Source: Escherichia coli
GTDB taxonomy: Bacteria > Pseudomonadota > Gammaproteobacteria > Enterobacterales > Enterobacteriaceae
Strand: one strand, 5' to 3'
DNA: 64,000 bases
NCBI RefSeq assembly: GCF_002854065.1
Contig: NZ_CP024147.1
Position 1 is the stretch's first letter, and each line of letters starts with the position of its first letter. A program made the position numbers and the translations under genes. Of the stretch, positions 17,193-54,675 are shown piece after piece. The notes below the pieces were generated by a model, which was given only the letters and a program-made list of their open reading frames with translations, ran no database searches and was not told the DNA's origin.

Positions 17193-19904
<2,712 letters not shown>

Positions 19905-19964
19905 GTTTGTATAGCGTTTTTATGTACACTCTTTATACTGTATATAAAATCGCACTACAGGCTC

Positions 19965-20249
19965 ATGAATATGAAACCGGAAAGCAAAGAAGCGCCAATC
20001 AATATCAGAGCGAAAGCCTCACAGCGTGACCTGATTGATATGGCAGCGAATCTGGTCGCAAAATCGCGCACTGATTTTATGCTGGATGCCGCATGCCGTG
20101 AAGCGCAAGACATCTTATTAGATCAACGACTATTCATCCTTGATGACGAGCAATACGATGCGTTTCTCGCTGCCCTGGACGCCCCCATCACTGCTGAGCG
20201 TCAGGCCAAAATTAACGCGTTGATGAATCGTAAATCGCCATGGGAATAA
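19965..20249 (+). CDS. DUF1778 (ribbon-helix-helix) antitoxin of a GNAT-type type II TA pair (94 aa; TacA/AtaR/KacA-like)
   Basis: MNMKPESKEAPINIRAKASQRDLIDMAANLVAKSRTDFMLDAACREAQDILLDQRLFILDDEQYDAFLAALDAP... fits the DUF1778 pattern; 3' end overlaps the next ORF by 10 nt. Confidence 0.7.
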   Translation: MNMKPESKEAPINIRAKASQRDLIDMAANLVAKSRTDFMLDAACREAQDILLDQRLFILDDEQYDAFLAALDAPITAERQAKINALMNRKSPWE

Positions 20250-20725
20250 CGGCTCCTACTCCCCTAACGTCTGAACATAATCTGGCTGACTTTTGCTGTT
20301 CCGATCACGGGATGAATGAATGGCTAAAAAAGAAAGCATTAAAAAATCACAGCTCCGGTCTGTCTCGTGTTTACGTTATCTGTATTGCCAATACCCGCCA
20401 GGTAATCGGCTATTACTGCCTTTCTACAGGCAGTATTCAACGTAATTTGGCCCCTGGAGCCATGCGACGTAATGCTCCCGAATCGTTGCCTGTTGTCGTA
20501 TTAGGCAGACTGGCAATTGATCAAGCCTGAGCAGGTAAAGGGTTGGGCGTCGCATTGTTGAAAGATGCAGTCTATCGCACAATGTCCATAGCTCAACAGG
20601 TAGGGGTTCGTGCGCTCATTGTTCATGCCTTAGACGATTCAGTACGCAATTTCTATCTGAAGTATGCCTTTGTACCTTCACCATTCCAGTCACTTACCTT
20701 ACTGTATCCCATTACTCTGGAGTAA
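20240..20725 (+). pseudogene. GNAT-family acetyltransferase toxin (TacT/AtaT/KacT-like) interrupted by an in-frame TGA at 20528..20530
   Basis: ORFs 20240..20530 and 20543..20725 are in the same frame; translation ...PLTSEHNLADFCCSDHGMNEWL...VVLGRLAIDQA*AGKGLGVALLKDAV... carries the GNAT acetyl-CoA motif split by the stop. Confidence 0.7.
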
Positions 20726-20774
20726 TTTACCTCTACCGGATAGTCACACTGATGAGTCTGATCCGGGAGGGATT

Positions 20775-21806
<1,032 letters not shown>

Positions 21807-28533: not shown

Positions 28534-28632
28534 TGCCTGATGCGCTACGCTTATCAGGCCTACGTGGTTTATGCAATATGTTGAATTTGCATGATTTTGT
28601 AGGCCTGAGAAGGCGTTCACGCCGCATCAGGA
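28534..28632. repeat. Pair of inverted REP elements (BIME-like) downstream of glpD
   Basis: tgcctgatgcgctacgcttatcaggcctacg and gtaggcctgagaaggcgttcacgccgcatcagg match REP consensus in opposite orientations. Confidence 0.7.
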
Positions 28633-30304: not shown

Positions 30305-31822
30305 TTATTCCATTGTTGGATACAGCGGCACATATCCCACATCTTCTACCAGACTCTGCCCCTGCGGCGTTAAAAACCATTCGACCAGTTTTTGTGTTTC
30401 TGACGTTGTATTTTCCCTCGTTACCATAAAGGCATCGACGATATAGGGATATTTGCCGTTGCGAATATTTTCCGCAGTCGGTGTAATACCGTTAATCGCT
30501 AGCAGTTTTATATTTTTATCAGCATTCATTTGCGTCGCGTAATAGCGGAAGGTATAGCCTATTGCGTTGTTTGTATTACGGTATTCGGCAACGACTTTAA
30601 TCATTCCCTCCATCACGCTTGCCACTTCCATTTCCTGCGGCGAGATCATGCGGACATTTTTCATGACCTGTGATTGCATCACTGTCTGGCTGCCAGAGTC
30701 TTCCGGGCGCTGCCAGGTCTGGATCTCCTGATCGTTACCGCCAACAGTACGCCAGTTGGTAATTGCACCACTGAAAATGTCACGCACCTGTTGTTCAGTC
30801 AGGGAATTAACCGGATTATCCGCATTGACGATGAAAACGAATGCTTCACGGGCAAAGGGGGTGTACAGCAAAGTGACACCAGATTCCTTTGCACGTTTTT
30901 TTTGCCCACCGGAAGGTTGCGCCACGAAAATAATATCAGCATCGCCCTTAACGATTTTGTTATATGCTTCTGGCGTACGAGAGTTTTCCAGATAATCCCA
31001 AACGTGAAAATCCTCTGGTATTACACTTAATGCATAAAATGCAGAAGCATAAATTGGGTACGCAGCCGTGGCGCCATCGATTCGCGGCCAGTTTTGCCTA
31101 AACTGAATTTGCGGTTTGCCACGCAGCGGCGTCAGTCGATTATTGAGTTTATCGGGTTGCCAGGCCCAGATATCAATATTTTCGCGTACACCGACACCAG
31201 GATTGAGCTGTTTATATAAATAACCCTGATAACCAGCGACAAAACCAAGCATGAGAAGGATAAACAGGAGGGAATTACGGCAACGTAGCCCGGATGTACC
31301 GGTTAAAGGATGTCTGGTTGGCCGGCCGTACCCCAGCGAAAAACTGATATGCGCGCCAACGGGTATAATGACTATCCACCAGTACTCACCTCCGACTACT
31401 GAGACTAACAAAACGCCCAGCCAGGGGAGCATAAGATCAGCCAACCAACCCGATCCCATCTGGTGAAATTGATAATCTGCCAGATGCAGCGCGATTATCC
31501 AGCCAACCAGGATTAATAAAGCGGGTACTAAAAAAAGACATTGTCGCCAGACGGCTATTTCTCTTTTTTCTGGTGCACTATCGCCTGCCCATACTCGCCC
31601 CGAGAAAAATAGCATTAATGCGCCCAGCGCCAGCATAAAAATGTTGAGCAGAAGGTAAATTGTTGGCGTGATAAGGATATTACAAACTTCAATAATACCG
31701 GCAAGTCCGACACCCAGCATAGCAACAACCGCCGCCAAAAATTGCGTCAGTATGGGGATGCCGAAAAAAGTCATTACCAGCGAGGACAAAATCCATTTTC
31801 TGTTTTGCATTATTCTTTCCAT
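30305..31822 (-). CDS. Fusion protein: N-terminal polytopic membrane domain (about 190 aa) plus C-terminal PstS-like binding domain (505 aa)
   Basis: N-terminus hydrophobic (MERIMQNRKWILSSLVMTFFGIPILTQFLAAVVAML...); C-terminal half paralogous to the lipoprotein (GATAAYPIY, RPEDSGSQT, AIGYTFRYY); alternative start at 31810; TATAAT on minus strand at 31840..31845. Confidence 0.65.
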   Translation of the reverse strand: MERIMQNRKWILSSLVMTFFGIPILTQFLAAVVAMLGVGLAGIIEVCNILITPTIYLLLNIFMLALGALMLFFSGRVWAGDSAPEKREIAVWRQCLFLVPALLILVGWIIALHLADYQFHQMGSGWLADLMLPWLGVLLVSVVGGEYWWIVIIPVGAHISFSLGYGRPTRHPLTGTSGLRCRNSLLFILLMLGFVAGYQGYLYKQLNPGVGVRENIDIWAWQPDKLNNRLTPLRGKPQIQFRQNWPRIDGATAAYPIYASAFYALSVIPEDFHVWDYLENSRTPEAYNKIVKGDADIIFVAQPSGGQKKRAKESGVTLLYTPFAREAFVFIVNADNPVNSLTEQQVRDIFSGAITNWRTVGGNDQEIQTWQRPEDSGSQTVMQSQVMKNVRMISPQEMEVASVMEGMIKVVAEYRNTNNAIGYTFRYYATQMNADKNIKLLAINGITPTAENIRNGKYPYIVDAFMVTRENTTSETQKLVEWFLTPQGQSLVEDVGYVPLYPTME

Positions 31823-52047: not shown

Positions 52048-52169
52048 GATTTCGTCCTTTTTAAGGTGGTTATTTACACCTTAGCGCAAAGCGGACGTGG
52101 TTCCTACTGGAGTGCGCATAACGAACACAAGCACTTCCCGAGGATAAATTGAGAACGAAAGATCAAAAA

Positions 52170-52259
52170 AAAAGCCAGCACCCGGCTGGCTAAGTAATAC
52201 TGGAAGCAATGTGAGCAATGTCGTGCTTTCAGGTTCTCCGCGAGGGTCTTCCTGATCGC
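52170..52259 (-). ncRNA. ryhB: Iron-responsive small RNA RyhB (90 nt)
   Basis: Minus-strand GCGATCAGGAAGACCCTCGCGGAGAACCTGAAAGCACGACATTGCTCACATTGCTTCCAGTATTACTTAGCCAGCCGGGTGCTGGCTTTT matches RyhB as I recall it, with the terminator hairpin plus T-run. Confidence 0.9.
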
Positions 52260-52869: not shown

Positions 52870-52894
52870 AGAATTTGCAATCTAAGTTTGTCAT

Positions 52895-52925
52895 TTAAGC
52901 CCTCACCTACCGGGAGAGGGCTTAA
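52895..52925. terminator. Hairpin between convergent yhhY and ggt
   Basis: TTAAGCCCTC-acctaccggg-GAGGGCTTAA inverted repeat in the 60-bp gap. Confidence 0.45.
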
Positions 52926-52929
52926 GATA

Positions 52930-54675
52930 TTAATACCCCGCCGTTAAATCATCCACCGAGCGCGGGTCGGATGCGCCGTACAACTCACCGTCCGGCCCAA
53001 CCATAATGCTTTGTGTACTGCCCATCGCCTCTTTCAGCGCCACTTTCTGACCTTTTGCTTCCAGCAGCTTGAGCGTATCCGGGCTAAACCCTTTTTCGAC
53101 ACGCAGCTCGTCCGGCAACCACTGATGGTGGAAACGCGGCGCATTGGTCGCTTCGGCGACATTCATACCATAATCGATGCTATTCACCACCATTTGAAGC
53201 ACGGTGGTAATGATCCGGCTCCCGCCAGGGCTACCGGTGACCAGCCAGGTTTTACCGTCTTTCACCACAATGGTGGGTGACATCGATGACAGCGGGCGTT
53301 TGTTCGGCCCGACGGCGTTGGCATCACCGCCCACCAGCCCATAAATGTTCGGTACGCCCGGTTTGGCGGAGAAATCATCCATCTGGTTATTAAGCAGAAT
53401 ACCGCTCTCGCCCGCGACAATGCCCGTACCGAAGGTGGTGTTCAGCGTATAGGTCACCGCCACCGCGTTACCATCTTTATCCACCACTGAGTAATGGGTA
53501 GTTTGATTACTCTCATAAGGCGCAAGCTTACCAGGGCGAATCTCGCTGGACGGTTTCGCTTTATTGATATCGATTTGCTCGGCAATAGATTTGGCATAGG
53601 CTTTATTGGTCAGCGCCTGCCACGGGACTTTGACAAAATCCGGGTCGCCAAGATATTCCGAGCGGTCAGCGTAGGCATATTTCTCCGCTTCTGCCATGAT
53701 CTGCATCGCGTCGGCGCTGCCAAAACCGTATTTCTTCATATCGAAGTTTTCCAGAATATTGAGGATTTGTACGATATGGATCCCGCCGGAGGATGGCGGT
53801 GGCATGGAGTAAACCTGATACCCGCGATAATCGCCGCTTATCGGTGTGCGTTCGACTGCTTTATACGCCGCTAAATCTTCTTTAGTGATCAGGCCACCGT
53901 TTTTCTGCATCTCCTGGGCAATCTGTTCCGCTATCGTGCCTTTGTAGAATTCGTCCGGGCCGTTTTCGGCAATCATCTCCAGGTTCTTTGCCAGGTTCGC
54001 CTGCACCAGCTTGTCGCCCTTTTTCAGCGGCTCGCCCTCTTTCCAGAAGATAGCCTTGCTGTTTTCGTGATTCGGCAGCACTTCGCTCCCGTAGGTTTTG
54101 AGATCGTCAGCCAGCGCGTCGTTAACGATAAAACCATCGCGTGCCAGTTTAAACGCTGGCTGCACCACTTTGTTCAACGGCATTGTGCCGTATTTATCCA
54201 ACGCCAGCGAGAAACCAGCGACCGTACCGGGCGTGCCGGAAGCCAGATGCGAAGTGAGTGATTTTTTGCTGTCCGGGTTGCCCTGGTCATCGAGAAACAT
54301 ATCGCGGGTCGCTTTGGCGGGTGCCATTTCGCGGAAATCGATAGCGGTGGTATTGCCATTTTTCGAGCGGATCAGCATAAAACCACCACCGCCCAGATTC
54401 CCTGCCTGCGGATGCGTTACCGCCAGCGCGTAGCCCACAGCCACGGCGGCATCAACGGCATTCCCGCCCTCCTTGAGGATATCCACCCCCACCTGAGTGG
54501 CAGTAGCATCTACAGATGCCACCATCCCCTGTTTCGCGCGTACCGGATGAAAGACATCTTCCTCCACGCCGTAAGAAACAGGAGACGGCGCAGGTGGCGC
54601 GGCTACCGTACTAAAACAACTTCCTGAGAGCAGAGCAGCAATGGCCACCCGGCGTAAAAACGTCGGTTTTATCAT
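52930..54675 (-). CDS. ggt: Gamma-glutamyltranspeptidase Ggt (about 580 aa)
   Basis: ORF 52930..54702; start set at MIKPTFLRRVAIAALLSGSCFS (signal peptide); autoprocessing Thr in ...QTTHYSVVD... Confidence 0.94.
   Translation of the reverse strand: MIKPTFLRRVAIAALLSGSCFSTVAAPPAPSPVSYGVEEDVFHPVRAKQGMVASVDATATQVGVDILKEGGNAVDAAVAVGYALAVTHPQAGNLGGGGFMLIRSKNGNTTAIDFREMAPAKATRDMFLDDQGNPDSKKSLTSHLASGTPGTVAGFSLALDKYGTMPLNKVVQPAFKLARDGFIVNDALADDLKTYGSEVLPNHENSKAIFWKEGEPLKKGDKLVQANLAKNLEMIAENGPDEFYKGTIAEQIAQEMQKNGGLITKEDLAAYKAVERTPISGDYRGYQVYSMPPPSSGGIHIVQILNILENFDMKKYGFGSADAMQIMAEAEKYAYADRSEYLGDPDFVKVPWQALTNKAYAKSIAEQIDINKAKPSSEIRPGKLAPYESNQTTHYSVVDKDGNAVAVTYTLNTTFGTGIVAGESGILLNNQMDDFSAKPGVPNIYGLVGGDANAVGPNKRPLSSMSPTIVVKDGKTWLVTGSPGGSRIITTVLQMVVNSIDYGMNVAEATNAPRFHHQWLPDELRVEKGFSPDTLKLLEAKGQKVALKEAMGSTQSIMVGPDGELYGASDPRSVDDLTAGY

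Follow-up and report, generated by a model that had tools for sequence, protein, structure and literature searches.

Between the convergent genes malT and rtcA, the Escherichia coli DNA analysed here (64,000 nucleotides of contig NZ_CP024147.1, referred to below as the window) carries a small antitoxin gene followed by a toxin reading frame that is broken once by TGA. Is this frame a toxin gene lost to a nonsense mutation beside an antitoxin gene that was kept, or is it still expressed at a low level through its stop? An initial annotation, made from the sequence alone, had posed these two alternatives. We conclude that the interval very probably holds the AtaR2/AtaT2 operon with its toxin pseudogenised by a TGG to TGA change at W97 and its antitoxin retained.

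Identity and layout of the operon

Read directly from the window, the malT–rtcA interval occupies positions 19905-20774 (870 bp), with malT ending at 19904 and rtcA at 20775, as had been described. The interval and its flanks contain the following features.

17199..19904, plus strand: malT, the left flank
19902..19965, plus strand: putative ataR2-ataT2 promoter/operator, from consensus and repeat matches
19971..20249, plus strand: ataR2, intact, 92 aa, DUF1778/TacA-family RHH antitoxin
20240..20725, plus strand: ataT2, probable pseudogene of a GNAT aminoacyl-tRNA acetyltransferase toxin, 161 codons, with TGA in place of TGG at codon 97
20528..20530, plus strand: premature TGA, with G-to-A at 20530 and G as the next base (GCC TGA GCA)
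20733..20769, unstranded: hairpin CTACCGGAT...ATCCGGGAG (CCGGAT…ATCCGG) between the convergent ataT2 and rtcA, with a putative function
20775..21806, minus strand: rtcA, the right flank, with its 3' end at 20775

Both the 94-aa antitoxin ORF of the initial annotation and its 10-nt overlap with the toxin ORF were recovered. The 94-aa ORF begins at an alternative in-frame ATG at 19965 (19965-20249); the start used by RefSeq and by the crystal structure is the ATG at 19971, which gives a protein of 92 aa. The antitoxin gene comes first and the toxin gene, starting at 20240, overlaps it by 10 nt, in the arrangement of a two-gene operon. The ataT2 frame contains a lone TGA (…RLAIDQA*AGKGLG…) and is otherwise open as far as the TAA at 20723-20725, again in agreement with what had been read from the sequence.

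The antitoxin translated from ATG 19971 was identical to chain C of PDB 7F37 at 92/92 residues, matched Pfam TacA1 PF08681 (DUF1778) with E = 1.1e-19, and is the RefSeq product WP_000801912.1, the same protein as in O157:H7. It is without any glycine in its sequence, a feature of AtaR2 that was pointed out in the AtaT2 paper (PMC7470980). With Trp restored at the stop, the toxin was identical to chain B of PDB 7F37 at 161/161 residues (9.5e-107). This conceptually repaired translation matched Pfam GNAT domains as well as PDB 7F37_B, TacT, AtaT and KacT, and the joined-translation alignment that had been proposed as a check placed both halves, across the stop, on one GNAT toxin. A search of NCBIfam returned no useful family match.

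The gene order in O157:H7 Sakai is malT - ECs_4261 - ECs_4262 - rtcA. The flanks of ECs4261/ECs4262 are shared with the window and the 870 bp are 99.8% identical; the Sakai AtaR2/AtaT2 pair (PDB 7F37) thus lies at the same malT/rtcA site with the same operon layout and a 100% identical antitoxin. ECs4261/ECs4262 were named ataRT2 by Ovchinnikov et al. 2020, NAR (PMC7470980). By sequence identity, then, what lies between malT and rtcA is AtaR2/AtaT2, a chromosomal type II toxin-antitoxin operon already characterised and published. The initial assignment to a TacT/AtaT-type GNAT toxin with a DUF1778 antitoxin was right, and can be sharpened to AtaR2/AtaT2, that is, ECs4261/ECs4262.

The activity of the intact module is known from published work. 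With acetyl-CoA as donor, AtaT2 acetylates Gly-tRNAGly on its alpha-amino group, which stalls ribosomes at Gly codons, and a toxin dimer forms a complex with an AtaR2 antitoxin tetramer (PMC7470980, PMC9177977). Growth arrest and its neutralisation by the cognate antitoxin were shown for the intact O157 allele, and Y139A, a substitution of the catalytic Tyr139, alone abolishes AtaT2 toxicity (PMC7470980). In the working module, intact AtaR2, a DUF1778/RHH protein, binds and neutralises the toxin in the heterohexamer and presumably represses the operon.

The closest of the compared relatives is TacA/TacT of Salmonella Typhimurium (PDB 5FVJ, 7F36, 7AK8), likewise a GNAT toxin with a DUF1778 antitoxin. 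TacT aligned with repaired AtaT2 over residues 3-155 (E about 7e-44) with the GKGLG loop conserved, and a specificity for Gly-tRNAGly has been reported for it too (PMC9177977). TacA/TacT comes from another species and another locus, however, and is a paralogous family member rather than the same gene as AtaRT2. AtaR/AtaT (ECs4308/ECs4307, PDB 6AJM/6GTS) and KacA/KacT (PDB 5ZGN) belong to the same superfamily and share the toxin-dimer/antitoxin-tetramer architecture of AtaRT2, but their toxins are distant from AtaT2 (E about 1e-20 to 5e-20 for AtaT and about 7e-18 to 1e-17 for KacT). AtaT and AtaT2 are 29.2% identical (PMC7470980), and the aminoacyl-tRNA specificity of AtaT is broader than that of AtaT2 (PMC9177977).

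Two further sequence features may be regulatory. Upstream of ataR2, TGTACA and TAAAAT, 16 nt apart (19923-19950), form a sigma-70-like motif, and an imperfect inverted repeat with arms of 27 nt (19902-19928 / 19939-19965) surrounds it. Because RHH antitoxins autoregulate type II toxin-antitoxin operons, it is plausible that this repeat is the AtaR2 operator. Downstream of ataT2, the hairpin at 20733-20769 resembles a CCGGAT...ATCCGG hairpin of the empty K-12-type junction. It has no T run and was not called in a scan for intrinsic terminators.

Authenticity and distribution of the TGA allele

Just two differences separated the window from O157:H7 SS52 across the 870 bp: a synonymous A/G at 20338 and a G>A change at 20530. 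The latter converts TGG (Trp97) to TGA. Relative to O157:H7 AtaT2, the toxin DNA of the window thus differs at two bases, with codon 97 read as TGA and the product truncated at 96/161 residues.

Comparison with other E. coli genomes, proposed earlier as a means of finding the sense codon at this position, gave TGG. A 61-mer with TGG was matched exactly by 354 of the 393 genomes holding the stretch, TGA occurred in 2/393, and codon 97 was Trp in essentially all other alleles. The 61-mer was unsuitable for counting TGA carriers, as a further SNP at 20549 sets strain 100416 apart from it; the TGA count was therefore made with a 40-mer whose position keeps TGG alleles from seeding a megablast match. 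This count found the TGA allele in two of 5,426 complete E. coli genomes: CUWW06, from wastewater in Thailand, and 100416, from human stool in The Gambia. The initial annotation had further expected a hydrophobic residue at the stop position in homologues. This was borne out by the Trp of AtaT2, in whose place TacT has an aromatic Phe.

A difference of a single base from 354 other genomes could in principle be a sequencing or assembly error over a true TGG, which the initial annotation had named as a refutation. The carriers argue against this. Over 24 kb, the window differed from CUWW06 by 4 SNPs and by an IS1 inserted in CUWW06 at the equivalent of window position 30809, and from 100416 by 10 SNPs. 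CUWW06 and 100416 share the TGA while differing elsewhere from the window and from each other; since the three differ at other sites, they are separate isolates of one shallow lineage. The TGA was also present in four independent metagenome contigs (L013-L016). The draft genome of E. coli 1-250-04_S3_C1 has a gene call that ends at Ala96 inside a 202-kb contig, which implies the same TGA allele there. Given its recurrence in independent assemblies and metagenome contigs, we regard the TGA as genuine and inherited, and the chance of an error as negligible.

Two of these differences deserve description in their own right. The CUWW06 element is an IS1B of 777 bp (L006 22809-23585) that splits a gene for a PstS-family phosphate-binding protein; it is absent from the window and from 100416, and so sets the window apart from the CUWW06 assembly. 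The 100416 SNP at window position 20549 (L005 12550) is a G>A change that lies 19 nt beyond the premature stop and gives V104I. It is consistent with relaxed constraint on the downstream frame, as a single event.

The 96-aa product was listed on 80 contigs in the collection, a number that is an overcount and was not used as a carrier count. Ten places with this product were inspected: at four the sequence contains the TGA, and at the other six the contig ends at codon 96 or 2 nt beyond it. Contigs L007-L012, Logan contigs from six sequencing-run assemblies, end exactly at or 2 nt past codon 96, at the polymorphic base, which suggests an assembly-graph branch in samples with both alleles. Other damaged AtaT2 variants appear in public data, in the protein cluster of the 96-aa product: one of 87 aa (P0009) has a frameshift after residue 71, and one of 149 aa (P0008) has lost the 12 residues YRTMSIAQQVGV in frame. 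Toxin decay may thus be recurrent, or the variants may be assembly errors.

Effect of the stop and readings that keep the toxin alive

Trp97 sits just before the acetyl-CoA loop G99-K-G-L-G103, and the catalytic Tyr139 lies 42 codons further on, so that the stop at codon 97 precedes both and the toxin ORF is incomplete. In this lineage a single G-to-A transition turned Trp97 into TGA, with translation predicted to end after 96 residues. Such a product stops short of the GKGLG loop, which binds pyrophosphate, and is without Tyr139 and the GNAT fold's C-terminal half. Because the loop and Tyr139 are lost, and Y139A by itself already abolishes toxicity, the 96-aa product should be inactive and would not be expected to acetylate Gly-tRNAGly. 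The toxin gene would then be a recent pseudogene, and the locus would now yield only the antitoxin. Judged from its sequence, the locus is a decayed, rather than functional, member of the GNAT/DUF1778 (TacAT-type) modules. PGAP/RefSeq already annotates the toxin gene in CUWW06 and 100416 as 'GNAT family N-acetyltransferase, internal stop', pseudo.

UGA is the leakiest stop codon in E. coli, and its natural misreader is tRNATrp. Low-level read-through by tRNATrp could supply a trickle of wild-type AtaT2 and leave an attenuated but live module. Because the codon lost to UGA was one for Trp, read-through would put the native residue back; beyond the UGA the frame is unbroken as far as its normal end; and the RNA downstream of the premature stop folds somewhat better than its shuffles (z = -1.95; 10/200 as good). 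This fold is not significant, however, and the same downstream sequence occurs in the compared TGG alleles. The base after the stop is G, rather than the C or A of the leaky UGA-C and UGA-A contexts, and no Rfam element matched. Only one shallow lineage has the allele (2/394 locus-bearing complete genomes), with no sign of selection for the stop, and 100416 already carries its missense change just after it. Antitoxin translated upstream would, moreover, titrate trace toxin. We therefore consider a live, attenuated module very unlikely.

A more specific form of this idea makes the W97-UGA allele a 'dimmer switch', in which misreading by tRNATrp regenerates AtaT2 at about 1e-3 to 1e-2 of its normal level. 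If true, the strain would have a strongly attenuated Gly-tRNA-acetylating toxin that rises when RF2 activity or termination efficiency falls. We think there is only a very slight chance that this is so. The near-undamaged downstream half would be expected after a very recent mutation, but a frame still in use would look alike. Passive read-through would explain nothing beyond decay, and trace read-through by tRNATrp is probably irrelevant.

A programmed event at the UGA, either insertion of selenocysteine or a two-piece toxin made by re-initiation at TTG 20543, would likewise use the frame, which is open before and after the stop, and a 60-aa ORF does start at this TTG (20543-20725). The ancestral codon, however, is Trp in nearly all alleles, with UGA in only 2/393. 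A search of the interval against Rfam found no recoding element and no other RNA family, and the downstream fold fell short of significance. We reject selenocysteine or structured recoding on these grounds. A split toxin is rejected as well: the TTG fragment would begin after G99-K-G101 and so divide the acetyl-CoA loop, and neither fragment alone matches any NCBIfam family. Taken as a whole, programmed recoding seems to us extremely improbable. Elsewhere in the window, Rfam matches at the gathering threshold comprised the RyhB sRNA (52166-52230, minus strand, 83 bits) and the ES036/CssrF sRNA (28556-28598, minus strand, 39 bits, just above the cut-off).

Between the two alternatives raised at the outset, nonsense decay with a retained antitoxin thus stands, given TGG elsewhere, the lost loop and Tyr139, and the PGAP pseudogene call; the read-through alternative gained no supporting evidence.

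The cassette at malT–rtcA and the retained antitoxin

Of the 5,426 complete E. coli genomes, 394 have the cassette, in every case chromosomally, and its carriers among the matches listed were mostly O157:H7, O55:H7 and O145 strains. About 5,002 genomes have an empty K-12-type junction. K-12 itself has a 42-nt spacer and no gene between malT and rtcA, in line with the initial annotation. The G+C content of the cassette is 46%, compared to 54% for malT and 60% for rtcA.

When empty and occupied sites were compared, homology ran a few bases past the stop codon of malT, broke off there and resumed only at ~20794, inside the 3' end of rtcA. Because homology resumes only there, the RtcA C-terminus encoded at 20775-20793 is altered: compared with the K-12-type protein, cassette-bearing genomes encode a longer ending of different sequence (…RVMITKLTD*). 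The cassette is flanked by two copies of a 9-nt direct repeat, GTGAGTTTG, at 19901-19909 and 20782-20790, the second of them lying in the altered 3' end of rtcA, and empty sites have one copy of a similar sequence, GTGAGTTTA. This repeat could be an insertion footprint or could be due to chance.

These features of the sequence would fit an acquired cassette. The earlier suggestion that the pair is probably an insertion is supported in the form of a presence/absence polymorphism (394 versus ~5,002 genomes) and by the low G+C content. Divergence of the cassette from O157 (2/870 bp) is as low as that of the upstream malT/malPQ side, whereas the rtcAB side is more diverged. Low cassette divergence was considered as a sign of recent transfer and rejected, the malT/malPQ side being equally low. 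At a separate place, about 52874-52930, the window lacks ~1.85 kb present in O157:H7 Sakai (the ECs_4291 region after yhhY; L003 41015-42866) or has ~55 bp in its stead.

The intact ataR2 raises the possibility that an orphan antitoxin is being kept by selection, as an anti-addiction or cross-neutralising factor against GNAT toxins borne by plasmids or phages. In the window, CUWW06 and 100416 alike, the gene is intact and its product the same as in O157, and an anti-addiction role for chromosomal AtaR/AtaR2 was proposed in the discussion of PMC7470980. The TGA genomes, however, differ by no more than 10 SNPs in 24 kb, and are too young for a neutral 279-nt gene to have decayed. With so little time since the loss of the toxin, the intactness of ataR2 is uninformative on selection. 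A search of the window for a second, paralogous GNAT/DUF1778 pair found none, and so no paralogous GNAT toxin. We regard selective retention as unlikely.

The preferred reading, a nonsense-inactivated ataT2 beside an intact ataR2, describes a known system that has undergone routine lineage-specific toxin decay, and RefSeq already carries the pseudogene call. As the module has been published together with its biochemistry and structure, the finding has little importance except for correct annotation. The natural W97* allele may be usable as a negative control, and it could also mark the lineage of strains akin to CUWW06 and 100416. At most, the locus shows in clean, natural form how the decay of a chromosomal toxin-antitoxin module begins, with the toxin lost first while the antitoxin is still intact.
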